Of a stretch of 64,000 nucleotides of DNA, positions 27,184 through 62,302 are shown one piece after another (the first letter of the stretch is position 1; each line of letters begins with the position of its first letter). Made by a program: the position numbers and the translations under genes. The stretch is from the sequence record PQ511146.1; one strand, written 5' to 3'. This stretch comes from Escherichia phage NHEP1. The notes under the pieces were generated by a model. That model was not told the origin of the DNA, searched no databases, and saw only the letters and a list, made by a program, of their open reading frames with translations.

Positions 27184-30100
27184 TTAAAGAGAGAAAGTCG
27201 CGTAGGCTCCCAGACGATACTGCTGATCACCAGGGAACATAACACCTATAGAGGCTGTCCCTAGAATCCTGCCTTCCTTTCCAGACTCCATTCTGAACCC
27301 TACCCATCCGGAACTCCTTGCAGCCTCGATGTTGTCGCTATACCCAAAAGTGGCAAGCTCGTCAACACCAGCTCCAAACAGCAACTGAAGCTGACTTCTC
27401 GGAAGCCCTATAATTTCAGGAATATATGCACCAAAGTACACCATCTGCCCTACCTTAGGACCGCTGCCGTACTCCATCGGCTTGCTTGTAGAGAAAGTCT
27501 TCATACCAGAAGTCCCTGCCGGATTAGGGTATGCCCCGTTTGTTGCTGTGCCTATCCACATTCTCCACTGAGGTGCCATCTGTCTGACAGTGAAAGATGT
27601 TGAAGACGTTTTGCGGCCTGCATCATCCGTAACTACAAACTTTATAGTGACATTACCAGGGGCTTTAAATGTTACCAATCCTGTGGTAGCATCCACTGTT
27701 GCAATGTTAGTATTACTACTTTCCCAAGTCTTTCTAATCCCTGGCACATTGGAAGGGGTAATAGAAGGTTCCTGCATCTGCAGTTTACCGCCCACAATCC
27801 CTATGCCGTTACCTGGATTATACAACGCACCAACTTCATCTACAATGTTACCTGCCTTGAGGCTGTACTTTTTAGAGAAGTTGTAAGTGCCGTTATATGC
27901 GTGTGTCCCTGAGAAGGTTACATCTGCCTTGCCGTTGGAGATGCAAACCAAAGCATACTTCCTGTCAGGCAACTGTGCCCCAGTTTCTGGGTGAGTTTTA
28001 CCCACCTGGAACACGCTCGGGTCAGTAGAGTCGTGGCTATCACTAACAGAGCTTGGACCACCCATCAACTGTGACAAGCAATTCCTTACCCATGTCCAGT
28101 TATTGTCACTGGAGAAGTCTACAGTCAAATCAAACACAACCCACTCATTTGGCTTCCACACAGGTGTTGTGATCAACTTACCAACACCCCCACCCTGAAG
28201 AGTAGGAGATTGTTCAGTGATCAGGGCAGAGTATGCCAGAGTGCCCAACTGCATAGTCTGGCTTGCTGTCCTCACTACCTTAGAATCAGCATCTGTGAAG
28301 TTGTTGATGATCTGGAATGTGCCATAAGTGTTTTTACAGGTAATTCTGGCGTTCAGTGTGTCAATCTTCCTCACATCTGCCATAGCAGTGTTAGACACAG
28401 AGAAGTCAGAAGCTTTAGCTGAGTTTGCTGCAACAGCCGGATCAACGTTGAGGGTTGCGTTGAACTGGCAGGCAGGAGTAACCAGCAGCTTGTTATCACC
28501 TATTTGCTTCCATGAAACACTTTGAACAGGGAGATTCCATTTAATACCTGAGAAAACTTTAGCAACCCTTGGTCCCAGAGCTCCCGTCCTGTTGTCTTTA
28601 CAGCACATGGACATAGTGATCGTTGACGGGGTGGCCTGACCAAACAATTGTTGTGCTTTTGCAGAGGACATGGTGTAGAAATTGTCCTTAACAAACTCAT
28701 CAGCCGCTAACGATCCGTCAGATCTCCACCATTGCACCTGGTACCCAGTCTTATCCCAGCCACCGACCTGCTTTAAGTCCTCCCAAGAGATTTCCAAATC
28801 TCCGGTGGTAGGGTTAATTGCCGCAGTTCCTGGTGTTCCAGATGACCATATTGGGATATCGAACCACGCTGGTTTAACAGACTGCACTGCGTTAGGTCCT
28901 ATTGCAGCAGCAAGTTGTTGACCCATCAATACGCGAGCATCTTTCACCAGACCCCACTCAATCATAGACCCAGAGTAACCCTCTTTCTTATATGCGGATG
29001 ACCCATTCAAGTGAATAAGTCTACTTGTGCCGAAGTTATGTGCTCCACCGCCGTTGTCGTCTGCAAAATTGGTTATGATTCTATCCCTGATGTTTTTCCA
29101 TGCCCTGCCCCCAATCTCGTAGTCATGGTCATAACATCTTTGCAGCGTTGTCCAGCAAATGATCGCCATCCTTCTGCCGTTACTGAAGCCAAAAGCCTGA
29201 TCGTTAAGCTCTCTCCACAAATAGCAGTTAGTGGTCCACATAGCTCTGTGAATGTTGAACCAGTTTATAGACTTGGCTGAGTTATCCCACTGAGTCCCAG
29301 GTAATTCAGGCCACACTGCATTAACCAGCATGTCTTCTGTTCCTGCATCAACCAAGAACCCTCTTACCTTTTTACCCATGCCTACCCTGTCTTTTGCAAT
29401 CCAACTGCCAAACAATCTCAGTTTTGGACCGTAAACAACATCTTCCGGATGCTCAAAAGAGACATACTTCAGATATACTGTAGGGTCACCATAGGTGCCA
29501 TCACAAACAGCTTTGTGCATGTTCTCGCCAAGGTCTAGACGAAGTCCTGTTACAACTTTTGACGTGTCGGTGAATTTGTCTGTTAAATCAAATTCATACC
29601 ACCACCAACCTGCACCCAACAATACCTTCTTACAACGCTGCGCATCTGTATCAGATATTCTCTTATCTCCTGAAAAAGGTGAGTCAGCAAACTGATAGTG
29701 CAGAGCAATTTCAAAAGGATGTGTGGAGGTCCCGTTTTCTGCAAGGACTTGTTTACCTATTAAGTCACACTTAATAATCATCACAACACGTTTGTACCCA
29801 TTTGTTACTGGGATCTGCATAGACATAGATGTCCCGTCCATGTTTGATCTCAGCGCAGTCATGATGATATAAGGATCAACGGCATTACCAAGAGTTTCAG
29901 GCCCTGGAATTATCTTATACTTCTTAACCTGCCCCATGATGTAATCACTGGCGTAAGTTGCAGCCTCGAAGCAAGATCCCCCGTTAGGCAGTTCCCCTGG
30001 CCCCCAGAAAAATGCGCCATAACAGTTATAAAACCACTTGTTAGGGTCGTATTTGTTCTTGAAGGTCTGAACCTCGTTGGCCTGTTTTGTCAAGAAAACC

Positions 30101-32817
30101 TGCGTATCTGTAAAGATTGCAGGGTTTACTCTTGACTGTCGATTAGCATACCCGGTTTGGTTAAACCATTGATTGCAAGAGTAATCCCTCATATAATCGT
30201 AATCAGAGTATTTGTTTGCATCCTCGTTCCAACACATGTTGAGGTTGGTGCCGCCCATGCATACAATATATTCTTCAACGTATTTATCACTTCGAGTGGG
30301 AATTCCTATGAACCATCTGTTAACAGGCTCGTCCCAAGCGGTACGTTCATCTTTAACGCAGATTGCAATCCAGTCATGTGTCCCTGTTTTCTTGCACACA
30401 TCCCGTTTCATACCGTAGTAGAATTCTTTGGTATTTGGCTCAGGTGCGCTTATCAGGTAGCTCCACGCTTGGTCTGCATAGGTTCCGTCAGTGCGTGGGT
30501 CGTGATCAAAGGCGTACATGATGATCCTTTCCCCGCCAAGATGTTCACCAAGAGTAACTTTGATGTTCACATCTCCGTAACCGTTGCGAACAACATCCAT
30601 ATTGTCAATAGAGATGCCTCTAGGGGTGTAGGCAATTTTCAGTGAGTTATCCTCACTGGTGCCCCCAAGTGTAATCCCTATGTTGTTTGTTGTCCCGTCG
30701 GCATATCTTACTGTGGCTTCCCAGCGTATTCCGAAATATCCTGCATCATGGCTGACAATTTTCAGTGTACGAGCACCTGGGTGAGGTTTTCCAGGATCAG
30801 GCCAAGGGTCTGGGTGTTCGTGGACAGTCAACGACGTTCCGTTTTGCTCGTTAACCTGCAACATTTTACCACCTCTGCCGTTAGGGTTGAACTCCCATAC
30901 GGCCTGTGTCTGCACTAAGTTGTTGTAGGTATTTCGTCTCTGATCATAAATCTCTTGGGTAACATCATAAGTGACTGATCCAGCATCCATTCTGTGGAGT
31001 CGGACCATATACGATGTATCTCCTTCTACCGCAGGCTGAGTCCCATTCAGCCCGAAGTATACAGTGTCATTAACATGGAACTGTTTGTTTCTACCGACAG
31101 TATGCCACTTACCGTCAGAAGGATACGCAGGAACTATGGTGTTCCAGTTCAAGGTCCTTGTCGTGTGCGTTCTGCCTGTGCCATGCTTGTCATGATAGGT
31201 TATTTTTACAGAGTACAGGCCACGTCTGTTCACATTCCTGTTATACTGAGTAACAACAACTTCGTTGGCCCCGCCGTGGTTCCAGTTGGTGGAGAATTGG
31301 TAATTTGCATCTGTAACAACCGTACCTGCAGCATTTACCAGTTCAATCTTGTCAATAATGAACGTAGCTCCCTCTGGCTGAGGCTTCAATTTCATCTTGA
31401 CCGTGTCACCAATGTAGATATTGCTAACGCTGCTAACACCGTTAACGTCAAAAATATCATCAACACCCCAACTATCTACTGGGACATTTTTATACCAATT
31501 CTCAGGAACCTCTGTGAACCCTTGACTATTAAGTCTGCCACCAAACAGGTTATTAGAACCTGCAAAACTTCCCCTTGGGATGCCTGACCACCAAAGTTTA
31601 CCATTAACAACAGTAAAGGTCCCTAAGAAACCTTCTCTGTGAATGCCTTGGAAATAAACACTCTCTGTCCAGCTAACTGGGAGGCGTTGCTCAACGTATT
31701 TAGCCGTAGCAAGGGCCTGGTAATGAACAAAATCGGCACGGGGGTTATTGTTTGCAGATTGTGCGCCAATATCGTTGCACAGGTTTCGAGAGAAGCCACG
31801 ATACTGCTTAGTACCATTGTTGAAGAAAATGCCACTTGTGCCGTACCCACGAGCCATTATCACCTCATGGGTGTAGGTTATATTCAAAGCACGCCAGGCA
31901 TCATCCCCCCAAACGTTTTGACCATAAAATACGTTAACAAGTTGTTGGTCATCAGGTCTGTGCATTCTTTGTGTTGCAACCACTGCCCCGTTCGGACCAC
32001 ACATGAATCCTTTCCACTCCTCATCTGCAGGAATGCCTTTCAAATCGTTGCGAGTAATCTGAGCAGGGGGCCAAACAAGGTCGTTTCTACTGTTGTTTCT
32101 CAGAAAGTCGTATCCAGCAATCCAAAAACCTCTAGGCCCACCGAAAATAACAGAGTTGTCATGCACCTCGCAGTTGATACTTGGGTTTTTCCAAGGGCCT
32201 GTTTCAGGATTTTCTGATGTTTCACCAATCTTTACAGGAGTTGCATGCTGGTTCTTATCTACATGTAAAGATCCGTAGGTGTTGTTACCAGACCCGTACA
32301 GGTGTAAAATGCCGTCACCCTCAGCCTCTGCCATAACCCAAACAGTGTTGTTAATACCACCCATTACCTCGATAAGGCGCTCTGGGTGGGTGTCAAGGTG
32401 CAATCCTTGAACAATCTGTTCCGGAAGAGGTGTCCACTCGTTTACGCAAACATCGTTACCACCTGCCGCAGTGGATCCGATAAGACCTGCAGTGCAACCG
32501 ATGTAGAAAAACTGGTTATCAAAAGTCCGGATCACAAACGCACGGTCTGCTCTCCACACATGATCAACATTCCAGGCCGTCTCGCTCGGGTAGTTTATAG
32601 GGTTACGATCCCCAGTGCGACACTCCCCGAACTTGTTATAGCCAGTAATATTAAGCTGACCGTCGTCAAAAAGTATAGCTAAGCTATTTACATAAGCTAC
32701 TGTAGTGCTTGTACCGTCACTGTTGTCTATTGGGTATGACAGAACAGCAAGTTCCTTAACTCCACCCCTCTTATCGAGGAAATGACGACCAAGTTTTAGC
32801 AAAGGGATTGGAAGCAT
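27184..32817 (-). CDS. giant putative virion protein (1877 aa) with N-terminal RCC1-like beta-propeller repeats and C-terminal-region Big_2 Ig-like domain
   Basis: RCC1-like glycine-rich repeats (GYNKFGECRTGD, YGSGNNTYGSLHVD); Big_2-like TWESSNTNIATVDATTGLVTFKAPGNVTIKFVVTDDAG; terminators on both sides. Confidence 0.6.
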   Translation of the reverse strand: MLPIPLLKLGRHFLDKRGGVKELAVLSYPIDNSDGTSTTVAYVNSLAILFDDGQLNITGYNKFGECRTGDRNPINYPSETAWNVDHVWRADRAFVIRTFDNQFFYIGCTAGLIGSTAAGGNDVCVNEWTPLPEQIVQGLHLDTHPERLIEVMGGINNTVWVMAEAEGDGILHLYGSGNNTYGSLHVDKNQHATPVKIGETSENPETGPWKNPSINCEVHDNSVIFGGPRGFWIAGYDFLRNNSRNDLVWPPAQITRNDLKGIPADEEWKGFMCGPNGAVVATQRMHRPDDQQLVNVFYGQNVWGDDAWRALNITYTHEVIMARGYGTSGIFFNNGTKQYRGFSRNLCNDIGAQSANNNPRADFVHYQALATAKYVEQRLPVSWTESVYFQGIHREGFLGTFTVVNGKLWWSGIPRGSFAGSNNLFGGRLNSQGFTEVPENWYKNVPVDSWGVDDIFDVNGVSSVSNIYIGDTVKMKLKPQPEGATFIIDKIELVNAAGTVVTDANYQFSTNWNHGGANEVVVTQYNRNVNRRGLYSVKITYHDKHGTGRTHTTRTLNWNTIVPAYPSDGKWHTVGRNKQFHVNDTVYFGLNGTQPAVEGDTSYMVRLHRMDAGSVTYDVTQEIYDQRRNTYNNLVQTQAVWEFNPNGRGGKMLQVNEQNGTSLTVHEHPDPWPDPGKPHPGARTLKIVSHDAGYFGIRWEATVRYADGTTNNIGITLGGTSEDNSLKIAYTPRGISIDNMDVVRNGYGDVNIKVTLGEHLGGERIIMYAFDHDPRTDGTYADQAWSYLISAPEPNTKEFYYGMKRDVCKKTGTHDWIAICVKDERTAWDEPVNRWFIGIPTRSDKYVEEYIVCMGGTNLNMCWNEDANKYSDYDYMRDYSCNQWFNQTGYANRQSRVNPAIFTDTQVFLTKQANEVQTFKNKYDPNKWFYNCYGAFFWGPGELPNGGSCFEAATYASDYIMGQVKKYKIIPGPETLGNAVDPYIIMTALRSNMDGTSMSMQIPVTNGYKRVVMIIKCDLIGKQVLAENGTSTHPFEIALHYQFADSPFSGDKRISDTDAQRCKKVLLGAGWWWYEFDLTDKFTDTSKVVTGLRLDLGENMHKAVCDGTYGDPTVYLKYVSFEHPEDVVYGPKLRLFGSWIAKDRVGMGKKVRGFLVDAGTEDMLVNAVWPELPGTQWDNSAKSINWFNIHRAMWTTNCYLWRELNDQAFGFSNGRRMAIICWTTLQRCYDHDYEIGGRAWKNIRDRIITNFADDNGGGAHNFGTSRLIHLNGSSAYKKEGYSGSMIEWGLVKDARVLMGQQLAAAIGPNAVQSVKPAWFDIPIWSSGTPGTAAINPTTGDLEISWEDLKQVGGWDKTGYQVQWWRSDGSLAADEFVKDNFYTMSSAKAQQLFGQATPSTITMSMCCKDNRTGALGPRVAKVFSGIKWNLPVQSVSWKQIGDNKLLVTPACQFNATLNVDPAVAANSAKASDFSVSNTAMADVRKIDTLNARITCKNTYGTFQIINNFTDADSKVVRTASQTMQLGTLAYSALITEQSPTLQGGGVGKLITTPVWKPNEWVVFDLTVDFSSDNNWTWVRNCLSQLMGGPSSVSDSHDSTDPSVFQVGKTHPETGAQLPDRKYALVCISNGKADVTFSGTHAYNGTYNFSKKYSLKAGNIVDEVGALYNPGNGIGIVGGKLQMQEPSITPSNVPGIRKTWESSNTNIATVDATTGLVTFKAPGNVTIKFVVTDDAGRKTSSTSFTVRQMAPQWRMWIGTATNGAYPNPAGTSGMKTFSTSKPMEYGSGPKVGQMVYFGAYIPEIIGLPRSQLQLLFGAGVDELATFGYSDNIEAARSSGWVGFRMESGKEGRILGTASIGVMFPGDQQYRLGAYATFSL

Positions 32818-32825
32818 TGTGTTCT

Positions 32826-32858
32826 CCAGATAAGAAAACCGCCCCGTCAGGAGCGGTC
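32826..32858 (-). terminator. rho-independent terminator after the 581-aa fibre gene
   Basis: Minus transcript CCGCUCC-UGAC-GGGGCGG followed by UUUUCUUAUC. Confidence 0.55.
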
Positions 32859-32865
32859 AGATATA

Positions 32866-34611
32866 TTAACGTTGTGCAATAACCACATCCACAATATCAC
32901 CAACACCACAATATGTCAATTGTAGCAAGGTGACACTGTTGGCTTTGTTGTTAATAACAGGAGTAGCCGACAGTATGGCATATTTATCGTGTAAGGTCAC
33001 GTTGTGGCCTACAGCATCCTGAATGACATAGATGATTGCAGTGAACGGGTAAGGTTTATCTTCAGCCGATGTTCCAGGCCATTGCCCTATTGTAAAATCC
33101 CCTTTCGCGTGGACAACATACATATTGGCCTGCCCGTTAGGTGTCCATGTCCCACTAGATGCGTCAGCCTCCTCTAAGTCAAACTCCACCTTCCCTGCAT
33201 GGAAAGCAGGGGCAGTAATAGTTTTACCAGCTTCAATTTCTTGAGAGGTGGTTATCTTGCCACTGGAGTTAATGCCATTACAGACAAAGTTGACATTAGA
33301 GAAGTCTGGCAGCCACCCAGTCACTGTACCTGATATTTCAAGGTTGTGAAGGTAGGTGGTGCCCGTCCCTGCTGCGTTTAAACTAACATCTCCATTTACC
33401 TGCAAGTTTCTGGTAACGTTGCAGTTTTCAGAGTTTGCAGTTGTTGCAGTTAGAGTGGTGGTTGTCAGCTCGGTAATTGCACCTTTGTTGGCTGTAAGCC
33501 CTTCTCCTTCAAAAGTGGCACGCTCATTCACCCTCAGAGTATTTAAAGATATGTTCTGGACAGATGCTGTGCCACGAATGACTATAGATCCGCCAACCTC
33601 TAAATCTCCATTGATCAGTGCATCTCCCGTGCTTTCAATATAGCTAGGGTAGATCATGGTGCCATCTACAGAGTAGGTTATCCCTGTAACGGTGCCTGTC
33701 ACCTCAAGGTTCTTAACCCTGGTGGTCCCATCAACCTGCAATGTCGGTTCGGTGGCTGCCTTCATGGCATTACCGCGAATGTACACGTAGTCAAAAAAGT
33801 TATTACCTAGACCATCAAAATGCACATCGTTGTTATTAGCCACTGGTTTCCCAGAAGTTATAGTGTCAGCTATAGCTCTGTGAGTTGATACTTCATGAGG
33901 TTGCAGCTCTGTGCTTCTCCAGTCTGCATGCTTAGGATCGCTCCACGCAAAGGTTAGTGTAGAAGTATTTGCAGTAAGGATTAGGTTCCTGAAGCGTGCA
34001 GTAGAATCTGCTCCATTAACAGGCCCGTGTAAGGTAAGGGTGCCCCCAACTATGGTGTTGGCAAGTTCTGTAAGACCTTTTACCACCAAAGATCCTACAG
34101 TAACTTTCATCCCCTCCATGGCTTTAAATATGCTATCCACATAGTCAACAACAAACTCTGTGTTTGCTATAGATTCGGACTTATCGTCCATTGGAGGTGT
34201 AGGTACTCTCGGGTCACCTTCGAACCTTGGACTGTTAAGTTTTGCGTAGTATTTTGCCATTACTGCAGAATCGGTATATAATCTCCAGTTCGGAGATCGT
34301 GAAGGATCTGCTGGCATCCTAACCGGGTTAGATTTTGATGCTGCTGGGGCGTACCACCACTGAGTGCCTGTATCCCCTTTAAACTCATACAACTGGTTAA
34401 AAACTGTTGTGGATGCACCATACGCCCAAGGGATTGGTGGCGTTTTAAAATAAAGGGTGTCAAGCATGGCTTTTCGTACCGTAGGGATGGTGGTCCCATC
34501 CTCTACGACAACTTCATCCACAGCGTTACCGTTGACAATCAAGTGCAAACGTTCAGAATCAACAATTACTTGATCTACCGCCTGCTCAAAGCTTGTCATG
34601 TCTTGCGCCAT
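32866..34611 (-). CDS. tail fibre / tailspike-like protein
   Basis: 581 aa; repetitive beta-rich segments (NLEVTGTVTGITYSVDG, NLEISGTVTGW) in fibre gene cluster. Confidence 0.55.
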   Translation of the reverse strand: MAQDMTSFEQAVDQVIVDSERLHLIVNGNAVDEVVVEDGTTIPTVRKAMLDTLYFKTPPIPWAYGASTTVFNQLYEFKGDTGTQWWYAPAASKSNPVRMPADPSRSPNWRLYTDSAVMAKYYAKLNSPRFEGDPRVPTPPMDDKSESIANTEFVVDYVDSIFKAMEGMKVTVGSLVVKGLTELANTIVGGTLTLHGPVNGADSTARFRNLILTANTSTLTFAWSDPKHADWRSTELQPHEVSTHRAIADTITSGKPVANNNDVHFDGLGNNFFDYVYIRGNAMKAATEPTLQVDGTTRVKNLEVTGTVTGITYSVDGTMIYPSYIESTGDALINGDLEVGGSIVIRGTASVQNISLNTLRVNERATFEGEGLTANKGAITELTTTTLTATTANSENCNVTRNLQVNGDVSLNAAGTGTTYLHNLEISGTVTGWLPDFSNVNFVCNGINSSGKITTSQEIEAGKTITAPAFHAGKVEFDLEEADASSGTWTPNGQANMYVVHAKGDFTIGQWPGTSAEDKPYPFTAIIYVIQDAVGHNVTLHDKYAILSATPVINNKANSVTLLQLTYCGVGDIVDVVIAQR

Positions 34612-34620
34612 GATTTCTCC

Positions 34621-34887
34621 TTAAGCTTTTTGCTCTTCGTTTTTAACGTGGTCAGGGTGCTGGCAACCCCACCGGAGCGAGATGAATTTGCTAATAAGCT
34701 GGGGGCAAGCTACCGAAGGTGCGTATATCCACGCATACCATTCAGGAAGCGTATCATTGTACCCCATATGAATAAACACCCCAGTCATCACTGCCATGCC
34801 TATGTTTGACCATAGCTTAGATTGGGACACTTTCGTAGGGTCATCAGATGCCGCAACCAACCCCCATAAAAACTGAGTTAATTTCAT
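34621..34887 (-). CDS. small membrane protein (holin candidate, speculative)
   Basis: 88 aa; hydrophobic segment LWSNIGMAVMTGVFIHMG. Confidence 0.3.
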   Translation of the reverse strand: MKLTQFLWGLVAASDDPTKVSQSKLWSNIGMAVMTGVFIHMGYNDTLPEWYAWIYAPSVACPQLISKFISLRWGCQHPDHVKNEEQKA

Positions 34888-34896
34888 TTACCCTCT

Positions 34897-35940
34897 TTAA
34901 GCATAAGATATGGTGATCCATTGACCGTTTACAAATTTTTGAATAGCACCAGTCCAATAGTCACCTTGATACGGGTGTTTATAGGCGTAATTGCCGGAGC
35001 ACATTACATGCCCAGGGTATACTCTTGATTCTCTGTAGGTGGTTCTGAAACGGTTTGCTATCCTTACATCTTCAACACCCCTACTAGGCATAGGGATAGT
35101 AAGGTTACCACTGCTATCTGCGCTACTACCATTTACCCTGCGGACCACGTTTCTCCCACCAACTGTTGCATATTGACCCCTGGCGGTTTTATCGTTACAA
35201 TCTACTCTTCCACCTATTTGAGCGCTGCCGCAGGATTGTTGTCCATTAACAGTGGCTCTTGGTATCGTTACCGCATTGGCATTTGCAGAGGAGCTTTTTG
35301 CATCATTGCATTCAAGATTTCCTTGGATAGCCAGTCTTGCACGGTTGGCAGTTATAGCATTGAGCTTCATAGCCGAAAACACAGGCTGCCCACCAGAAGG
35401 TTGAAATCTCCAACGGAAACCGTCTATTTGGTGAGAAGGATCATCAAGGTCTGTGCCGTCAGCGCCACCGATGTTGTCCATAATCCAGAAATCCATCATC
35501 GTCTTGTCTGGAGTTATGGTGGTGTATATCGCCGCATTGTCTGTTGACGCAGATGCAAACTCAATTCTTTGAAGACCTAAAGTTTGAGTCTGGATCATTG
35601 TGTCTCCAGTCTTGTCAACATAAAGGTCATCCATTTCTTCAGGCGAGTATACATTGAGAACTTGACGTGCAGCAGCTTTGTCTGGAACGTCTGCCAGATT
35701 ATTAGTGACCCTTAAGAATCTATTATCCCATCCAGGGACAACATCTTCTGTTAAATGCTTTAGCCACGCAGAGAGCATGTGGAGTTCAAAGTTAACAACT
35801 TCACATGCTATCCTTTGTGTCACATCCCAACCTTTCAATCTCTCTTCTTTGTTCGGTTGAGATTTGTTCAACTCTCCTGTATTTTCAAGCACAACATCCT
35901 GATTGGCCCAAATATCGAGAGGGATAACTGGTTTAGTCAT
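34897..35940 (-). CDS. tail fibre protein, paralog A (P2 gpH-like C-terminal tip)
   Basis: 347 aa; N-terminus and C-terminal tip (QKFVNGQWITISYA) clearly similar to 36956..37996; ATG after AGGAGAAC SD. Confidence 0.6.
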   Translation of the reverse strand: MTKPVIPLDIWANQDVVLENTGELNKSQPNKEERLKGWDVTQRIACEVVNFELHMLSAWLKHLTEDVVPGWDNRFLRVTNNLADVPDKAAARQVLNVYSPEEMDDLYVDKTGDTMIQTQTLGLQRIEFASASTDNAAIYTTITPDKTMMDFWIMDNIGGADGTDLDDPSHQIDGFRWRFQPSGGQPVFSAMKLNAITANRARLAIQGNLECNDAKSSSANANAVTIPRATVNGQQSCGSAQIGGRVDCNDKTARGQYATVGGRNVVRRVNGSSADSSGNLTIPMPSRGVEDVRIANRFRTTYRESRVYPGHVMCSGNYAYKHPYQGDYWTGAIQKFVNGQWITISYA

Positions 35941-35974
35941 CACGTTCTCCTGAGAAAATTCCTTAAGGACTATT

Positions 35975-36012
35975 TTAACACTTTAGAGAACAAAATGCAA
36001 GAACGGCATCCT
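35975..36012 (-). terminator. rho-independent terminator between the two fibre cassettes
   Basis: Perfect 8-bp stem GAACGGCA-(4 nt)-UGCCGUUC followed on minus strand by UUGCAUUUUGUUCUCU. Confidence 0.6.
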
Positions 36013-36030
36013 TGCCGTTCTGACCTTTGT

Positions 36031-36345
36031 TTACCTTTTACTATGCTCTACAAGCATGTGTAAAATCTTTTGTACATCAGCTCTGATACCGGAGACATCT
36101 GTCCTGACATCTTGCTTAAGGTCGTTAATATCGGCCTCTAGCTTACTTAGCCGGGTCTCAATAATGGAATCAAGTCTATCTTTTGTAACCATGCTATTTT
36201 TCACTAAAATGAGGTCTTTCTCCAGCTCATCCAGCCTCTTGGAAATGCCTTTCCATTTGGTGTGCCACTGGTTGAAAGCCCATACACAGATCGGGACAAC
36301 GGTACCCATGCAGATACCGTACAGTGCCGCCAAATCCAACTCCAC
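36031..36345 (-). CDS. membrane-anchored coiled-coil protein (spanin- or chaperone-like, speculative)
   Basis: 104 aa; N-terminal TM LAALYGICMGTVVPICVWAF then charged heptad-like region. Confidence 0.35.
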   Translation of the reverse strand: MELDLAALYGICMGTVVPICVWAFNQWHTKWKGISKRLDELEKDLILVKNSMVTKDRLDSIIETRLSKLEADINDLKQDVRTDVSGIRADVQKILHMLVEHSKR

Positions 36346-36356
36346 AACACCTCCTC

Positions 36357-36941
36357 TTAGAGGGTAGGTCGTTCCGGGAAGAAAATGTCAGGGGCTTTAG
36401 ATGTATCTATTTCAAGAAGTTTTACCCTGTACATTTTCAAATCTCTGATGTTGCGTTTTTGGTCATCAGTGAGATCGTATTCAAGGTCAATCATGTCTTG
36501 ATAGGCACCAATTCTAGCAGTAGCCCAAGCAAGTTCTGTCTCTATGACACCCTCTGCCTGTTGAACAAAGAATTCATTGTCTGTGACAAATTCATCACCA
36601 ACTAAACGCAAAGCGTCGTGGTGGAGCATAATGTTTTCTGGTACCTCTTCTTTTTTGGCGATAACCACACGAAGACCTGGAGCAGGCCACAAGGCATCGG
36701 GTTCTTCTGTAGATGTCTTAAGAATACCCTTCTCGTCAACAAGTAGGAAGATACAACCCGGATTTTCTTGTCGTAATGCTCGTGATTGCACATACCAATC
36801 GCCATCATCATTACGTAAAAAATATCCAGTGTATGCCGTGTAATCCTCAACCTCCTGAGGAGTCAACTCCTTGGTCTCCTTGTTGGTGTAGTATTCGCCA
36901 GATCCCGGCTGGTAAAGCTTAAACTCTTGAAGTATTTTCAT
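36357..36941 (-). CDS. tail fibre assembly protein (Tfa family)
   Basis: 194 aa; C-terminal signature RNIRDLKMYRVKLLEIDTSKAPDIFFPERP matches the conserved Tfa motif (...VD.S.APDI.WP..P); directly downstream of fibre paralog B. Confidence 0.65.
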   Translation of the reverse strand: MKILQEFKLYQPGSGEYYTNKETKELTPQEVEDYTAYTGYFLRNDDGDWYVQSRALRQENPGCIFLLVDEKGILKTSTEEPDALWPAPGLRVVIAKKEEVPENIMLHHDALRLVGDEFVTDNEFFVQQAEGVIETELAWATARIGAYQDMIDLEYDLTDDQKRNIRDLKMYRVKLLEIDTSKAPDIFFPERPTL

Positions 36942-36955
36942 GCTAGTCCTCCGAT

Positions 36956-37996
36956 CTACGCATAATTAACAGTGATCCATTGACCATTTACAAGTTTTTG
37001 TAAAGGACCTGCCCAGTAGGTTGAACCACGCATCTCTTTTTTATCACCAAAATGCCAACCTGTGACAACGTAGCCGTTGCGAACTGGAGATTCAGAAACA
37101 CCATCAACAAGTCTTGCACCGATTCTGATATCCTGTACCCCTGTCTGCGGGATGGTGATCGTTACATCGCCGTTACCGTTAGCCGTCACTCCATTCACAG
37201 AGCGCACCACATTTCTGTTACCGACAACACAGTGCTGGCTTCTTACAACCATACTGTCACAACTTGCGCCGCCATTAACATATACTGACCCAGCCGTCAA
37301 CTGACTAGCTACATTGCAGTTGGTGAATGTTGCTGTGCTGCTAATGGTGAGGTTATTACATCGCATGTTATCAACAACTTCAACATTGCCCACCACTTTC
37401 AACAACGCACGATTAGCCGTGATCGCGTTCAGGTACATCAGAGTGAACTCTGGGTTAATGTCCGGCTGAGTTGGCTGGAATCTCCAACGGAACGCATCTA
37501 CTGTAGATGTACCACCATCATCGAACGCCCCAATATTATCACTTAACCCAAAGTCAAGAGTTGTCTTATCTGGGCCAATAGTTGTCTCTATCCAAGCCTT
37601 ATCTGTCTCGGCAGCTTTAAAGTTGATACGTTGCAAACCCAATGGGCCTGTCATTGTATCACCTGTAACTTTTACATACCTGGCGTCTGCCTCTTCCTTA
37701 GTAATAATCCCAAGGTTTCTACGGGCAACAGGGATGTTTAAAAGATCACTCAAGTTATTATCACGTACCAGATAACGCCCTTCTTGAGCGGGGATCTGCT
37801 CGTCAGCAATGTATTTTGCCCAAGTTCCGAGCATATTGAAAATATAGTTAAGTTCTTCACAGGATGGCTTTTGACCAAGATCCCAACCTTTTCTCCACAA
37901 ATCATCAATCGGGCGTAGCCTGTTCTGTCTGTGGGTGTTAGGCAGAACCTGATCCTCCTCTGCCCAAATCTCTAATGGAAAACTAGGTTTTGACAT
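36956..37996 (-). CDS. tail fibre protein, paralog B (P2 gpH-like C-terminal tip)
   Basis: 346 aa; C-terminal QKLVNGQWITVNYA; paralog of 34897..35940. Confidence 0.6.
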   Translation of the reverse strand: MSKPSFPLEIWAEEDQVLPNTHRQNRLRPIDDLWRKGWDLGQKPSCEELNYIFNMLGTWAKYIADEQIPAQEGRYLVRDNNLSDLLNIPVARRNLGIITKEEADARYVKVTGDTMTGPLGLQRINFKAAETDKAWIETTIGPDKTTLDFGLSDNIGAFDDGGTSTVDAFRWRFQPTQPDINPEFTLMYLNAITANRALLKVVGNVEVVDNMRCNNLTISSTATFTNCNVASQLTAGSVYVNGGASCDSMVVRSQHCVVGNRNVVRSVNGVTANGNGDVTITIPQTGVQDIRIGARLVDGVSESPVRNGYVVTGWHFGDKKEMRGSTYWAGPLQKLVNGQWITVNYA

Positions 37997-38008: not shown

Positions 38009-40081
38009 TTATGAGAAGTCTGGCGGAACAACATCTTCTACATACCCTTTCAGAGCAACCTGTCCCATATGCAGAACAGTAGAATCTCTGGCGGTAACAG
38101 TGATGCTGTCAGACATTACTTGCGGGTATGCCCACACATACTGTTTTACCTCAGGGTATCTATACTCTATGGTTGCCATGTTTCCGCAGATACATCTCCA
38201 TAAAAATTCTTGGTAATTCCTGGTTGGGTCGTAGCCATATACCGGAGCAAGCTCTTTGCTAGGAACGAACCCTGCAAGGTATTGTATTTCAGACGGTTGC
38301 CAACCTAACTTAACGATAGGTATGTTTACAGACTCTTTTGCCTTTTCAATACCGCCCTGCATCACCCAATCGTAGCACTCGGTGCAGAAGAAATCAAGAG
38401 CGCCTGCTTCCTTTTTATATTGGTCGGCAAGGTTCAGTTTTTGCGTAAGCTCGGTTTCCATAATGGTCGGGAAAAACAGCAAAGCTGTCATCTGAGCCGA
38501 TGCAGCATGTGCTTTTATTGCCTTTGAAATAGCTGCAATACGAGCTCCAAGCTTACCACGACAAAATGCTACATACTTGTCATAAACACCGCCAGTTTTA
38601 GGATCGTCAATAGTCCCAATGTCTAGTGCATATTCACCAGTCTCATCATAAAACGCCTGCTTTGTAGGGTAGTCATAAATACAAGGCTTACGAGTATCGG
38701 TATTGAACCACCACCACGGTTCACCAATCTGCATAATCACTGGCAGGTTGTTTCTCATAGCGGCTGATGCAAAATTCTTAAATACTGCAGTAAGGAAATT
38801 CATACCCTCTTCAATGGTTGGAGACAGGAGGTAACTACAAGGCGTATAGCCTGTTTTAGCATAGTTATCGTTCCAGTCTCTCTGGGTCCATTCCAACGGA
38901 CAGGCATCGCTATAAAGCTCAAAGCTTACAGACTGCATAACGTCGAAGTCATGTCGTTTGGCATTGTACATAAAATCATCATGCCATTTATAAGCTGCAG
39001 CGTTTAGAGCTCCTGTTTTGTTTATAGACCATTGGGTTCCTGACCATGTGTAGTCATAATAATGGCTCATACCAACATAATGGTTTATGGTTCCTGTATA
39101 GCCCAGACGCTTGATATTACTCAACACCCTTAAAGGGGATACGTTCCACATATCGTCATATGCTGTGCAGATCCCAACATCGTGTTCTTTCACCTGAATA
39201 TTGTTAAGTTGCATCATTTTCCAGCCTGTGTCCGGCTGAAGAAGATCTAGACGCAACTCACACTCTACATTTTCCGTTCTCGGGTCTGTGCTATTACCTA
39301 CCCAATCTTTAGGCATAAGTGGTATTAGAATCCTTCTCACCTGCCGGGGATCAACACCCATCATGTTGTTGTTCTGGTCCATCCCGACGCAGTCCTCGAA
39401 ATCAATATGAATTTCTGCAACATTCTTATCCTCTGAGATGCTGACAGCATATTGAGCTAAAGGAACATAGATGATTGTACCATCAACAAGGTCTACAGTC
39501 ATAATCATCTTTTCAGGGGTGGAGAAGTTGCTGGCATTGGTTATTGACATTCTGAACCAAAGCTTGGTGTTTCTCATCTCGTAGTGATCATCAAATCCAA
39601 TGCCGAAATGGTCATACTTGTCAACTGTTTCCCAAATGCACCCAGCCATGCCCCCATATGTTCTTGACACTAAACGATTAATACAGCAGTTATTATCCGC
39701 AACAATACAGGTGCTTTCAGTCTGCTGTGTGGTTGTAACCCAGTATCTTGGGTGAAACATTCTCTCCTCAACGGTATCCCAAGATATTCTGTCAAGATTT
39801 TCATCTGAAACTATTGTACATTTCGCTCTTTGTGTTCCAATCATAACCCCTTGGGAGTTTGATGAAAACTCCATAAAGAAGCTCCTTGGCAACCTGTTTG
39901 GCAATTTGTCAACAATTTCTACAGGGATCTCGATACTGGTTGCCCCAACCGGGATAGTTACATCGCCCTCAACATGATCATAATCCCTACCCGGAACTGC
40001 AGTATCCTGAACTGTGCGGTAATGAAACCGTGCAGCCATTGTAGAGTAATCACGGTAAGGTTTAAAAACAGCTGTTGCCAT
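38009..40081 (-). CDS. baseplate/fibre-associated structural protein with N-terminal Calx-beta-like segment
   Basis: 690 aa; DYDHVEGDVTIPVGATSIEIPVEIVDK; positioned after baseplate J/I-like genes. Confidence 0.45.
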   Translation of the reverse strand: MATAVFKPYRDYSTMAARFHYRTVQDTAVPGRDYDHVEGDVTIPVGATSIEIPVEIVDKLPNRLPRSFFMEFSSNSQGVMIGTQRAKCTIVSDENLDRISWDTVEERMFHPRYWVTTTQQTESTCIVADNNCCINRLVSRTYGGMAGCIWETVDKYDHFGIGFDDHYEMRNTKLWFRMSITNASNFSTPEKMIMTVDLVDGTIIYVPLAQYAVSISEDKNVAEIHIDFEDCVGMDQNNNMMGVDPRQVRRILIPLMPKDWVGNSTDPRTENVECELRLDLLQPDTGWKMMQLNNIQVKEHDVGICTAYDDMWNVSPLRVLSNIKRLGYTGTINHYVGMSHYYDYTWSGTQWSINKTGALNAAAYKWHDDFMYNAKRHDFDVMQSVSFELYSDACPLEWTQRDWNDNYAKTGYTPCSYLLSPTIEEGMNFLTAVFKNFASAAMRNNLPVIMQIGEPWWWFNTDTRKPCIYDYPTKQAFYDETGEYALDIGTIDDPKTGGVYDKYVAFCRGKLGARIAAISKAIKAHAASAQMTALLFFPTIMETELTQKLNLADQYKKEAGALDFFCTECYDWVMQGGIEKAKESVNIPIVKLGWQPSEIQYLAGFVPSKELAPVYGYDPTRNYQEFLWRCICGNMATIEYRYPEVKQYVWAYPQVMSDSITVTARDSTVLHMGQVALKGYVEDVVPPDFS

Positions 40082-40767
40082 TAACCCTCCTGTCTAGTTG
40101 CGTTTACTGTAATACTTTCACAATAAATGGTTGTAGTGTCCCAATCAGGTCTTACGTCAGGAACATATAACAAAGTAGCCAGCCCACCAACCCCGAACTG
40201 ATTTTCTTCCCACACTGATCCAAAGCCGAGAGCTGTAGAGTCCCCTTCAAAACCAAAAGCTTGCCCTTGCGACTCCGTAAGACGCAAATGACAAGGCAAT
40301 GGCAGCATATCCAAGATCTGGTCGATAGACTGCAATATGTCAAAGCAAGTTTTTCTAATGTTTATGTCAAACCTGAAATTGTCACCTTTCCACGTATCGA
40401 AATTATCTCTTCCGAACAACTGTCGTAAGGTGGAGATGACATCTTCGCGAGTACCACCTCTTGATGATGCTGCCTGCTGAATAATCAGTGTAGCACGAAA
40501 ATCCGCATCTGAAAGCCCATTCCGAAGAATACCAAGTTGATTACCAACTTCGTCAAGGTATCTTCCGCTGGCATTGTTAAGCAGTCTTCCTTCAGCCAAA
40601 CCTACCAGCATCTTATCAACATTCTCCAACCTTTTAAGGTACACGGTTAAGAATGTGACTAAATTAACCTTCTCAGCCAGAAAATCTCCAGGTAGGTAGT
40701 CAAGACCCCCCTGAACAAAATCTGGCAGAGTGTGGATGTGGTTGACATCCGACTTAATCTCTGCCAT
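40081..40767 (-). CDS. baseplate protein, gpI-like position
   Basis: 228 aa; immediately downstream of Baseplate_J-like gene with overlapping stop/start; assignment positional. Confidence 0.35.
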   Translation of the reverse strand: MAEIKSDVNHIHTLPDFVQGGLDYLPGDFLAEKVNLVTFLTVYLKRLENVDKMLVGLAEGRLLNNASGRYLDEVGNQLGILRNGLSDADFRATLIIQQAASSRGGTREDVISTLRQLFGRDNFDTWKGDNFRFDINIRKTCFDILQSIDQILDMLPLPCHLRLTESQGQAFGFEGDSTALGFGSVWEENQFGVGGLATLLYVPDVRPDWDTTTIYCESITVNATRQEG

Positions 40768-40778
40768 ATCTCGCCGCC

Positions 40779-42269
40779 TTAAATAGTTTGTTGGAAAGTT
40801 ATATTACTTTCGTCGAGGTCAAACACCTCGGTCATGTTTGCAACAATATCGTTTGTAGTGTAAGCTTCGTCAGAGGCTCCTACAGGTTTAACTTGAATTA
40901 CCAATCTGTTAAATCTGCCTATCGACACAGCAGCGGATGCAGCACCTACCAATTGGATATTGTACAACGTATCGGCGACATCCAAGCCGTTAACAACCTG
41001 TAAAAGAGCCTCTACAATGGCATCTTTTTCGGTTGTGGAAAGCGCAGCACCTGAGTAGGTAATTCTTACATCTAGGCGGTAGGTATTTGCCTTGGAGTAA
41101 TAAATCCTTTCAGTCTGACCGTCTGATGTGGTAATATCGTAGAAGATATTCCCATAAGTTCTGTTTGTGCAAGCTATGGTTTGATACAGTGCCTGACAGA
41201 TATCCTCTGTTGCACCACCAAACACCACCACTTGAAACTTATAAGGTGGTATACCTTTCGCATCCGTTTTATCGGTGTTGTTGGAGAACACTCTTACTTT
41301 CTCAACACCTTTCACCTCGCTTACAGCGCTAAGGATTGCAGGACGGGTAGCTTTAGATGTCAGCTGTTTAGTGCTGGAAGCTCTTAAGCGATACTCAGAG
41401 TCTTTCTCAACATCCCTACCCTCATTGAATCTTTCTCGGTTGGTAAGCTTGATAAATCCACTGGGAGTAGGTGACATTGTTGTCACGGTTTCTGCCTCTC
41501 TTGACAGCTCACCAGCCTCGTTAGCGATAACATCTAGGGTGATAGTTCTTTCCCCTACAATCGGGGATACTCTGAAATCTACCCTGCTATTAAGTCCAAC
41601 TTGATCAAGATTCGAATTGTACCCTATCCACAACGTCCCTGTCAACATATCTATCTGAATTAGATCATCATTCAGCAGGGTTGTATTATCGACAATGAAT
41701 TGCTTAATCTCGCCGTAAAAGCTTGGCAAATCAGAAGAGTCCAGAGCCTTATCTGTTAAAACCAGACTTTTTGTTTTGATACTTCCGTCTGTCTGGTTGG
41801 TAATTTGAAAGTTGTATTTCCCAATTCTTAGGTCTGGAGCGTTTATTCTGTGAGCAATAAGATTTCCCGCCACCTGCACATCGTTGCTAAGAACAAAGTT
41901 GCCACTGTCCAGCGTATAAGTTTTGGAATCATAAATCATATTGTACGGCACAGTTGTGTTGATTGTCAACTGGCAGGTACCTGATGATTTAGAACGGCCT
42001 CTTCGGTAAATACCCTGTCTTCCAAGAAGCTCATCCAGGTAAATACCTTCTGCCCCATATAGCGTCTGTGATGCGTATACAGATGCTGCCATAAGAATAA
42101 GTTGATATTCTCGCTCGTTGAAAATAGTGGTCAGCTTATCTGCAACTGAGTTACTTTGTACGTTGAAGTTTTCGCCAAAAGCACGGATCAGGCTTTGCTT
42201 AGTTTCAACGATTAGGTCATTTAGGGTTGGTATAACGAAACCAGCCTCTGTCAATCCATACTTAGCCAC
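40779..42269 (-). CDS. baseplate wedge protein, Baseplate_J (gp6/gp47/XkdT-like)
   Basis: 496 aa; N-terminal GLTEAGFVIPTLNDLIVETKQSLIRAFG, central YRLRASSTKQLTSKATRPAILSAVSEVKGVEKVRVF and C-terminal region fit Baseplate_J pattern; GTG start after GGAGGAG SD. Confidence 0.65.
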   Translation of the reverse strand: MAKYGLTEAGFVIPTLNDLIVETKQSLIRAFGENFNVQSNSVADKLTTIFNEREYQLILMAASVYASQTLYGAEGIYLDELLGRQGIYRRGRSKSSGTCQLTINTTVPYNMIYDSKTYTLDSGNFVLSNDVQVAGNLIAHRINAPDLRIGKYNFQITNQTDGSIKTKSLVLTDKALDSSDLPSFYGEIKQFIVDNTTLLNDDLIQIDMLTGTLWIGYNSNLDQVGLNSRVDFRVSPIVGERTITLDVIANEAGELSREAETVTTMSPTPSGFIKLTNRERFNEGRDVEKDSEYRLRASSTKQLTSKATRPAILSAVSEVKGVEKVRVFSNNTDKTDAKGIPPYKFQVVVFGGATEDICQALYQTIACTNRTYGNIFYDITTSDGQTERIYYSKANTYRLDVRITYSGAALSTTEKDAIVEALLQVVNGLDVADTLYNIQLVGAASAAVSIGRFNRLVIQVKPVGASDEAYTTNDIVANMTEVFDLDESNITFQQTI

Positions 42270-42302
42270 GTCACTCCTCCGGTATGAAAATCTCTACAAG
42301 GT

Positions 42303-42331
42303 ATTTTACCAAATTTTGTAACAATAGTCAA
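42303..42331 (-). promoter_or_regulatory. sigma70-like promoter (TTGACT-N17-TAAAAT) upstream of Baseplate_J-like gene
   Basis: Read on minus strand right after the terminator: -35 TTGACT, 17-nt spacer, -10 TAAAAT. Confidence 0.55.
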
Positions 42332-48088: not shown

Positions 48089-48147
48089 TGTGCCTCCAGG
48101 TTAAACAATCATGATAGTTATTTTACCAGATTTTGAGTTAATACGCA

Positions 48148-62230: not shown

Positions 62231-62273
62231 TTTATAGCATCCTTATTAGTCATGTTGTGCACCATATTTGTGT

Positions 62274-62302
62274 ATTTTACCATGATTATGGTGCATTGTC
62301 AA
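62274..62302 (-). promoter_or_regulatory. sigma70-like promoter (TTGACA-N17-TAAAAT) upstream of chaperone/tape-measure genes
   Basis: Read on minus strand: consensus -35 TTGACA, 17-nt spacer, -10 TAAAAT. Confidence 0.6.

Follow-up and report, generated by a model that had tools for sequence, protein, structure and literature searches.

Paired short tail fibers and a single assembly chaperone in a Vequintavirus baseplate locus

Introduction

Two paralogous short tail fibers encoded together with one chaperone are an established feature of Vequintavirus. In the rV5 paper (Kropinski et al., 2013), gp30 and gp33 are 42.3% identical, HHpred relates both to T4 gp12 (1PDI) with probabilities of 97.7-98.4%, and 'two chemotypes of LPS' are suggested. 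The text of that paper reports gp30, gp32, and gp33 as detected by mass spectrometry, and its Table S5 is without all three. The two paralogous short fibers and the one chaperone are described again by Maffei et al. (2021, Fig. S5D), who find no allelic variation of either paralog between isolates, unlike typical specificity determinants.

Homologous short fibers have been placed on the baseplates of phi92 and phiTE. The N-terminal joints of phi92 gp147 (fiber III) and phiTE gp236 (PDB 9cuy/9mjn) are homologous and dock on a gpI-like wedge protein, the phiTE joint on wedge 1 and phi92 gp147 on gp145. Each of these phages has a single short fiber.

Phage Mu represents a different solution. It has one constant fiber N-terminus and two invertible tip-plus-chaperone cassettes (S/U and S'/U'), each with its own Tfa and switched by Gin. 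The Tfa of Mu binds the distal fiber and remains on the virion. T4 gp12 offers a functional analogy, being a baseplate-bound short fiber that binds the LPS core for irreversible adsorption.

Results

The locus is that of rV5 and FV3

We analyze a stretch of 64,000 nucleotides of Escherichia phage NHEP1 (PQ511146.1), hereafter the window. Judged by its sequence, the window is from a Vequintavirus, an rV5/FV3-like E. coli myovirus whose closest relative is FV3, with 98% DNA identity to FV3-like phages over 3.6 kb. The same locus is found in ~116 Vequintavirus records, and 111 records span at least 80% of the query. The genes run in the order wedge, 690-aa protein, short tail fiber (STF), Tfa, 104-aa protein, STF, 88-aa protein, and 581-aa fiber (Table 1). 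The annotated order is the same in rV5 and FV3, and the gene annotations of FV3 and EmilHeitz agree with the locus. In particular, rV5 gp33/gp32/gp31/gp30/gp29 (FV3 ORF033-029; BASEL Bas49 genes 0035-0039) have the gene set and order of the window at 95-98% DNA identity. There is no substantive difference, and the window is a further isolate.

Table 1 Features of the short-tail-fiber locus in the window.
Feature	Position	Strand	Remarks
581-aa tail fiber	32866..34611	-	phiTE gp241 homolog; phrog_4549; last gene of STF-A transcription unit
p88, 88 aa, annotated membrane protein	34621..34887	-	After STF-A; rV5 gp29; phrog_1322, E 2.7e-32
STF-A, 347 aa, derived short-fiber paralog	34897..35940	-	rV5 gp30 equivalent
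STF-A promoter	35971..36000	-	TTGCAT, 17-nt spacer, TGTTAAAAT (extended -10 type); rV5 'late promoter' P030
RNA hairpin, 9-bp stem, AGGA loop	36000..36021	-	After p104; candidate weak terminator or attenuator
p104, 104 aa, N-terminal TM segment and coiled coil	36031..36345	-	Between Tfa and STF-A; rV5 gp31
Tfa, 194 aa, fiber assembly chaperone, the only one of the locus	36357..36941	-	rV5 gp32 equivalent; PF02413
STF-B, 346 aa, short tail fiber	36956..37996	-	ORF; rV5 gp33 equivalent; positional ortholog of the single fiber of sister genera
228-aa baseplate protein, gpI-like wedge position	40081..40767	-	Gene order; candidate docking partner of fiber N-terminus

Both fibers are intact and conserved

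The product of STF-B is 100% identical to that of FV3 ORF033. The STF-A open reading frame (34897-35943) encodes 348 aa from a GTG, and the likely start is the ATG at 35940 behind AGGAG, which gives the 347-aa product of the FV3 annotation. The homology of STF-A and STF-B extends from end to end (BLASTP, 43% identity, E 2e-95), in agreement with the sequence-only reading, which had proposed two related fibers of ~347 aa; they are true paralogs, and the C-terminal motifs that it cited, KFVNGQWITISYA and KLVNGQWITVNYA, are found in the fiber ORFs. Its description of the pair as diverging centrally holds in part. In STF-B numbering, similarity is lowest at residues 205-249 (17-23% identity). However, the segment of highest similarity also lies inside the protein (residues 106-148, 60-67%), and identity is low in the N-terminal segment 46-90 as well (27-30%).

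Every one of the ~116 Vequintavirus records encodes both fibers at full length, as do two divergent metagenomic lineages, and neither gene is a pseudogene. Values of dN/dS against EmilHeitz are 0.03 for STF-B and 0.07 for STF-A, placing both paralogs under strong purifying selection. The amino-acid divergence of STF-A is about twice that of STF-B in every comparison made.

A baseplate joint is combined with a Mu S-like tip

The N-terminus of STF-B (residues 1-108) matches the short tail fiber of phiTE (PDB 9cuy, E 1.8e-19), as does that of STF-A (residues 1-83, E 2.6e-8). At this end, neither fiber resembles P2 H or Mu S. At the opposite end, the tip of STF-B (residues 286-343) matches Mu S (PDB 5yvq_A; phmmer, E 4e-6), with 36% identity over 61 aa. 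In BLASTP searches of an 11-sequence database, the last ~60 residues of STF-B (VxDxRxG ... PxQKxxNGxW) match Mu S with E 6e-6 and P2 H with E 0.006, and its GDTxxG region matches Mu S with E 0.001. The direct match of STF-A to Mu S in this database is weak (E 0.023), and its tip class is linked via the homology to STF-B. The term gpH-like, applied to the fibers earlier, therefore fits no more than their distal part, and even there Mu S is closer than P2 H; the N-terminus is instead a baseplate joint of the phiTE/phi92 type. The phi92-like fibers have only the N- and C-terminal parts in common with STF-B, and the phiTE fiber, 554 aa long, has distal domains that are Ig-like.

The AlphaFold2 models of the STF-B and STF-A monomers, which use a 25-sequence alignment, are poor (mean pLDDT 60, pTM 0.3). 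We conclude nothing from model geometry. A Foldseek search with the low-confidence STF-B model has 5yvq_A (Mu S) as its top match (E 2.6e-7), and the same search with the poor STF-A model returns no significant PDB fold match. T4 gp12 is matched in none of the Pfam, PDB sequence, or Foldseek searches, the last made with these models.

One chaperone and its ancestral neighbors

Residues 121-192 of Tfa score 46 bits (E 7.4e-12) with the Pfam family Caudo_TAP, whose gathering threshold is 22.1 and to which Mu U and P2 G also belong, and Tfa matches phrog_136 (E 1.7e-36). The protein terminates in ...KAPDIFFPERPTL, and its C-terminal KAPDIFFPERP motif aligns with the AP(D/N)(I/P)xxPxxP end of Mu U and P2 G. 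A match of the Tfa-alignment profile to PDB 5yvq_B is discarded as circular, Mu U being part of the alignment. The locus thus has a single Tfa, downstream of paralog B only, as had been proposed. Two fibers with one Tfa are kept in three independent lineages, and an N-terminal insertion of ~17-20 aa in Tfa is common only to two-fiber lineages.

The gap between Tfa and STF-A holds p104, an ORF overlooked by the earlier reading. It matches phrog_5345 (E 1e-48) and nothing meaningful in Pfam, and a Kyte-Doolittle TM window covers residues 5-23. The p104 gene directly follows Tfa in the loci of Av-05, R7, GAP31, BIS47, Hena1, and phiTE, and in PaulScherrer Tfa is followed by a protein of similar architecture. 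The 88-aa protein does follow STF-A as stated before, but it is only mildly hydrophobic (Kyte-Doolittle 19-aa maximum, 1.05). It has no Pfam or NCBIfam match and is 51-56% identical to the equivalent gene product of single-fiber phages; an NCBIfam search with six proteins of the locus gives no matches. Its position is ancestral synteny, and p88 is neither a fiber chaperone nor a partner of STF-A. The proposed division into two cassettes of fiber plus partner is abandoned, p104 and p88 also occurring as ancestral neighbors in single-fiber genera.

The phiTE homolog of the 581-aa fiber, gp241, is annotated 'tail fiber protein', and the phiTE paper gives no roles for gp237-241. Orthologs in the sequences L009-L011 carry the Pfam domains Phage_phiTE_241_N and _C. 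A terminator-like hairpin (32837-32858) follows the gene and corresponds to rV5 t028.

The 228-aa wedge protein is 62-64% identical to its equivalents in Av-05, R7, and GAP31, and 29% identical to that of PaulScherrer. Its gene lies directly between the Baseplate_J gene and the fiber genes, a position that it also has in phiTE and phi92-like loci. Gene order and the phi92 and phiTE literature suggest that this protein is the docking partner for the fiber N-terminus.

STF-A has its own promoter

STF-A is preceded by a conserved promoter of its own, and STF-B belongs to one transcription unit with the genes of the baseplate wedge, Tfa, and p104. The hexamers and the 17-nt spacing of the STF-A promoter are conserved in four sequences (the window, EmilHeitz, L009, and L016), and Table S4 of the rV5 paper lists P030 as a late promoter. 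The motif TGKTAAAATA occurs four times in the window, always on the minus strand, compared with an expectation of 0.42.

The hairpin upstream ends on the T with which the -35-like hexamer begins. The hairpin has a predicted energy of -15.5 kcal/mol (z -3.9 for the whole intergenic region) and the sequence after it, UGCAUUUUGU, does not amount to a strong U-tract. In EmilHeitz the energy is -12.8 kcal/mol, with one stem pair altered on both sides (C-G to A-T), and L009 and L016 have weaker hairpins of different sequence upstream of STF-A. No terminator is entered for the p104/STF-A gap in the rV5 terminator table. The strong terminator placed at 35975..36012 by the sequence-only reading is not borne out; the hairpin is modest, its T-tract is weak, and that span overlaps half of the hairpin and is mostly promoter.

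No invertible switch is evident in the window

No Gin-like invertase is encoded in the 64-kb window (tblastn with Mu Gin, best E 1.2). No inverted repeats bracket the fiber genes, the only candidates being short imperfect pairs (73-93% complementary) of the kind expected by chance, and the two fiber genes share the minus strand. As far as sequence can tell, these results dispose of an invertible or phase-variable system, and the earlier conclusion of a non-invertible pair stands. The Mu S/S' system and the window pair are alike in that each offers two alternative tips. Unlike Mu, the window has two complete fiber genes on the same strand and one Tfa, without an invertase or inverted repeats, and the N-terminal baseplate domain of its fibers has no relationship to the one in Mu S or P2 H.

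STF-A is a derived copy in an ancestral unit

Five sister genera have a single short fiber. In Av-05, R7, GAP31, BIS47, Hena1, phiTE, L012, and L018, the order is in all cases STF-Tfa-p104-p157-p88-fiber, p157 being a 157-aa membrane protein, and the order wedge-STF-Tfa-small TM protein of phi92 and phiTE is also that of the window. STF-A occupies the slot of the p157 gene, and tblastn detects no p157 remnant in the window.

STF-B is 42-48% identical to the single fibers of Av-05, R7, and GAP31, and STF-A is 37-39% identical to them. Over residues 1-70, the identities to sister-genus fibers are 59-66% for STF-B and 44-46% for STF-A. The two paralogs form one clade with 97% neighbor-joining bootstrap support, STF-A being on the longer branch. 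These comparisons identify STF-B as the ortholog of the single ancestral fiber and STF-A as a derived copy. The ancestral unit comprised one fiber, one Tfa, and three small proteins; in the Vequintavirus stem, a duplicate of the fiber gene replaced the gene for the middle one of the three small proteins.

L016, one metagenomic lineage represented by two contigs, has a different distribution of divergence between its paralogs. Its A and B tips are 85-100% identical (85% over 60 aa), and its A and B N-termini are 37% identical. The tip identity is kept by selection, because third positions are saturated. Different tips therefore do not define the pair, since the L016 paralogs carry nearly the same tip. 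Compared with L016, the N-terminus of STF-A in the window is 51% identical and that of STF-B 77%. An A-type N-terminus, unlike the B-type, is common to all three STF-A orthologs. No cultured phage in the phage collection has a second fiber of the L016 type, all matches being below 60% identity.

Discussion

The short-tail-fiber pair is textbook for Vequintavirus. It is real, intact, and ordinary for the genus, and both it and the idea of dual LPS recognition date from earlier publications (2013, 2021), so that the pair itself adds nothing new.

On balance we lean toward a short-tail-fiber module in which a duplicated, trimeric, wedge-docked fiber with LPS-core tips is served by one shared Tfa as a constitutive pair. 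STF-A and STF-B would each form trimeric fibers, whose N-terminal ~90 residues would be a joint that docks, as the phiTE and phi92 joints do, on the baseplate wedge. The Mu S-like C-terminal tip may touch the LPS core, which the genetics of LL12 and the BASEL phages identify as the terminal receptor. The single Tfa would nucleate trimerization of both fibers, starting at the C-terminus in the manner of Mu U acting on Mu S. In L016 one Tfa plainly suffices, because both tips are 85-100% identical; in the window, Tfa would also bind the diverged tip of STF-A. The fibers would be made constitutively rather than switched. The parallel to T4 gp12 has limits. T4 gp12 uses the chaperone gp57A, and the window fibers a Caudo_TAP protein; the short fibers of the relatives point downward, and T4 gp12 is folded under the baseplate.

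The STF-A tip is diverged in the rV5/FV3 clade; therefore, the two fibers probably recognize different LPS-core variants there. On K-12, LL12 depends on one indispensable LPS-core feature, Glc I, and since its loss alone abolishes plating, two independent receptor routes are not evident on this host.

A possible, still tentative alternative is that the paralogs differ lastingly in the N-terminal docking module rather than in the tip, and take up two positions that are not equivalent on the baseplate or fiber network. There could be, for example, 6+6 fibers, or STF-A could sit on another fiber, giving a second tier of similar adhesin; the tip divergence of the rV5 clade would be secondary. The A-type N-terminus shared by all STF-A orthologs, the cross-genus conservation of the B-type N-terminus over residues 1-70, and the selected tips but divergent N-termini of L016 are consistent with this arrangement. 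The faster change of the STF-A N-terminus would be expected if its partner differs from the conserved wedge protein, and phi92 and phiTE have one short-fiber site per wedge. However, a second site is seen in no structure. In low-resolution cryo-EM of Bas49 and Bas54 there are three fiber densities near the baseplate and a single short-fiber class, in which A and B are indistinguishable. STF-A may also use the same wedge site, because its N-terminus still matches the phiTE joint, and L016 is a single lineage. The corresponding history is one we would advance with equal reserve: two non-equivalent sets of short fibers would be set apart by their docking modules, the one Tfa that folds both sets would have gained its lineage-specific N-terminal insertion at the duplication, L016 would preserve the original arrangement, and dual receptor specificity would have arisen later, in the rV5/FV3 clade only.

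It is unlikely that the two kinds of homotrimer compete for a common set of six wedge sites to give mixed virions, with relative dosage set through the STF-A promoter. Both N-termini are homologous to one wedge-binding joint, each wedge of phi92 and phiTE offers a single short-fiber site, and a separate promoter would permit different expression levels; however, competition leaves the conserved difference between the A-type and B-type N-termini unexplained. That one copy is redundant or decaying, or that the pair belongs to an invertible or phase-variable system, is very improbable, for the faster evolution of STF-A is set against low dN/dS and full-length copies throughout, and the switch against same-strand genes with neither flanking inverted repeats nor a Gin-like recombinase in the window.

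The rV5-like phages are among the commonest broad-host-range E. coli isolates and serve as components of cocktails for biocontrol and therapy, and engineering their host range depends on knowing the role of each short fiber. The comparisons provide constructs to test, namely the replacement of the p157 slot, the A- and B-type N-termini, the identical tips of L016, and the Tfa insertion.

Identification of a paralogous short-fibre pair with one chaperone

The 3.6-kb region has matches in 116 phage records, the best of which (98% identical) belong to the genus Vequintavirus, a group of rV5-like E. coli myoviruses. Phage FV3 is 97.9% identical over the region, and its proteins are 100% and 99.1% identical to the short tail fibres STF-B and STF-A, respectively. 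The gene order is the same as in the annotations of FV3 and of BASEL phage EmilHeitz. Sixteen GenBank records (MG0656xx) titled "Campylobacter phage", with Campylobacter jejuni as host, are ~95% identical to the locus; the host label on these Vequintavirus-like records looks doubtful.

Coordinates of the fibre locus, the promoter motif and related loci
Feature	Coordinates	Strand	Remark
Baseplate_J-like wedge gene	40779-42269	minus	Pfam
228-aa baseplate protein	40081-40767	minus	gpI-like wedge position
690-aa NCTSP-like protein	38009-40081	minus	
STF-B	36956-37996	minus	
Tfa	36357-36941	minus	
p104	36031-36345	minus	small-protein trio
Spacer			87 nt, between p104 and STF-A
STF-A	34897-35940	minus	
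p88	34621-34887	minus	small-protein trio
581-aa fibre	32866-34611	minus	
1877-aa fibre	27184-32817	minus	
TGKTAAAATA	35971-35980	minus	coding strand
TGKTAAAATA	42302-42311	minus	coding strand
TGKTAAAATA	48119-48128	minus	coding strand
TGKTAAAATA	62273-62282	minus	coding strand
L016 fibre paralog	L016:116-1156		ENA ERZ15185469 NODE_327
L016 fibre paralog	L016:2190-3254		ENA ERZ15185469 NODE_327
Small-protein trio	L003:6638-7701		
Small-protein trio	L015:8228-9305		

STF-A and STF-B are paralogs, homologous over their full length (43% identity, E 2e-95), and the tip motifs that the sequence-only reading quoted for the two fibres are present. The central divergence that it described holds in part: the minimum identity (17-23%) falls at STF-B residues 205-249, but the peak (60-67%, residues 106-148) is also internal. 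At residues 46-90, identity is 27-30%. Neither copy is a decayed pseudogene; both are intact and under strong purifying selection (dN/dS 0.03 for STF-B and 0.07 for STF-A). Tfa, the putative assembly chaperone, is a genuine Caudo_TAP protein that scores above the Pfam threshold (E 7.4e-12), carries the C-terminal end KAPDIFFPERP, and is encoded by the only Caudo_TAP gene of the locus. There is no switching machinery: a search of the window for a Gin-like invertase gives a best E value of 1.2, and no inverted repeats bracket the fibre genes. The sequence-only reading was right to see a fixed, constitutive pair of paralogous fibres served by one chaperone gene. STF-A is followed by the 88-aa protein p88, as stated, but the hydrophobicity of p88 is mild, and the gene of p104, a protein with one TM segment and a coiled coil, had been overlooked.

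The description of the fibres as gpH-like applies to the distal part only, and even there Mu S is a nearer relative than P2 H. The STF-B tip matches Mu S both in sequence (PDB 5yvq, E 4e-6) and in Foldseek (E 2.6e-7), whereas P2 H gives it a weaker match (E 0.006 in an 11-sequence database). STF-A itself matches Mu S and P2 H only marginally. The N-terminus matches the phiTE short fibre (PDB 9cuy) with E values of 1.8e-19 for STF-B and 2.6e-8 for STF-A.

The pair with its single chaperone is real and is an already published hallmark of the genus. The rV5 equivalents of STF-A and STF-B, gp30 (347 aa) and gp33, are 42.3% identical (Kropinski et al. 2013, PMC3606486). Maffei et al. 2021 describe a pair of short tail fibre paralogs with a single chaperone in Vequintavirinae sensu stricto, note that the paralogs lack allelic variation, and relate these proteins to the one locus found in phi92-like phages and, ultimately, to Mu GpS/GpU. 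The text of the rV5 paper (PMC3606486) reports that total-phage proteomics by mass spectrometry found gp30, gp32 (the Tfa equivalent), and gp33, but none of the three is listed among the 19 proteins of Table S5 (Additional file 5), a caveat to their presence in the virion.

The 690-aa protein, encoded between STF-B and the wedge genes, matches two Pfam domains of the non-contractile tail sheath protein, the TIM-barrel (E 8e-80) and the N-terminal domain (E 1e-12), as well as a Calx-beta domain. It is the N4 gp65-like deacetylase fibre that the literature discusses as the ECA/NGR binder. Its gene is present in Av-05 and absent at the equivalent position from Seunavirus, Mydovirus, and Certrevirus.

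STF-A in the slot of an ancestral membrane protein

Avunavirus, Seunavirus, Mydovirus, Henunavirus, and Certrevirus carry one short fibre, followed by Tfa, p104, p157, a p88-like protein, and a long fibre, and two metagenomic relatives have the same order. p157 is a polytopic membrane protein of 157 aa, assigned to Pfam Phage_phiTE_239 in L012 and L018, metagenomic relatives with a single fibre. In Vequintavirus, STF-A occupies exactly the position of p157, of which the window retains no remnant; Vequintavirus lost p157 to STF-A. Since the single-fibre genera carry p104 and p88 and STF-A lies in the p157 slot, these small proteins are ancestral neighbours rather than partners made by the duplication.

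The p104/p157/p88 trio separates Tfa from the next fibre gene in six Vequintavirinae genera. In T4, holin gene t is placed after gene 38, a layout that membrane proteins behind a fibre chaperone may recall. Salmonella phage vB_Sen_SG_WM_RUS_R7 (PQ002170.1) is labelled Demerecviridae in its taxonomy line, despite a tail-fibre locus collinear with and closely related to that of GAP31 (Seunavirus, Vequintavirinae).

STF-B is 42-48% identical to the single fibres of the sister genera versus 37-39% for STF-A, and STF-B is the ortholog of the single fibre. In a neighbour-joining tree, A and B form one clade (97% bootstrap), a signal that comes mainly from the protein middle, the terminal domains being unresolved, and A has the longer branch. 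The tree indicates that the fibre gene was duplicated in the stem of Vequintavirus and that A changed faster thereafter. The amino-acid divergence of STF-A is about twice that of STF-B: dN is 0.172 and 0.085, respectively, versus the divergent two-fibre lineage L009, and identity is 45% and 74% versus L016, another such lineage.

Fibre tips and chaperone in lineage L016

Within residues 1-90, the A-type N-terminus (QPNKEER..TQRIA) differs from the B-type (RPIDDLW..GQKPS). L016 is a metagenomic, Vequintavirus-like lineage whose second fibre has an A-type N-terminus, so that the pair stays A-type/B-type at the N-termini. At the tip, however, this fibre shares 85% identity with the lineage's own STF-B over the last 60 residues and 100% over the last 20. 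In the tip stretch, third codon positions are only 40-47% identical between the paralogs and thus saturated, indicating that the tip identity is kept by selection and not by recent gene conversion. None of the cultured phages of the collection has this arrangement. At the level of sequence, L016 shows that one Tfa would be able to serve both fibres, and that in the rV5/FV3 clade the divergence of the STF-A tip is putatively derived.

In all three two-fibre lineages (window, L009, and L016), Tfa has an N-terminal insertion of ~17-20 aa at residues ~13-34 (…TKELTPQEVEDY…). The insertion is absent from Tfa of the single-fibre relatives Av-05, R7, GAP31, and PaulScherrer, from Mu U, and from P2 G, and may adapt the chaperone to a pair of fibres.

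Hairpin and promoter upstream of STF-A

The strong terminator proposed between the cassettes is not borne out: the hairpin at 36000-36021 (-15.5 kcal/mol) is followed by a poor U-tract, and the rV5 ARNold/MFOLD table calls no terminator at the equivalent site. The rV5 listing places late promoter P030 at the equivalent of the STF-A promoter. The latter (TTGCAT, 17 nt, TGnTAAAAT) is kept in EmilHeitz and in two divergent metagenomic lineages as well as in the window, showing that STF-A has a conserved, separate promoter motif of its own, a predicted promoter whose TAAAAT hexamer (35972-35977) would place the transcription start ~7 nt downstream. TGKTAAAATA, of the extended -10 type (the rV5 "late promoter"), occurs four times in the window versus 0.42 expected by chance. 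Two copies were examined, those preceding STF-A and the wedge gene; in both cases a hairpin stands immediately before the motif and a gene start follows after ~30 nt, which is a repeated terminator-then-promoter layout.

Model of fibre docking

In the phi92 (2026) and phiTE (2025) structures, the homologous single fibre uses its first ~90 residues to dock on the gpI-like wedge protein, and Mu-like short-fibre density was reported on Bas49 and Bas54 at 7-9.5 Å (RBPseg, 2025). By analogy with these homologs, the fibres would be trimers docked on the wedge through an N-terminal joint, with the tip binding the LPS core; the tips of the two paralogs may recognise different core structures. Tfa would nucleate trimerisation from the C-terminus and then stay attached, as in Mu. 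The comparative details refine the picture of the published pair and suggest an alternative reading, in which the docking module, rather than the tip, may set the paralogs apart, a possibility that merits structural attention.
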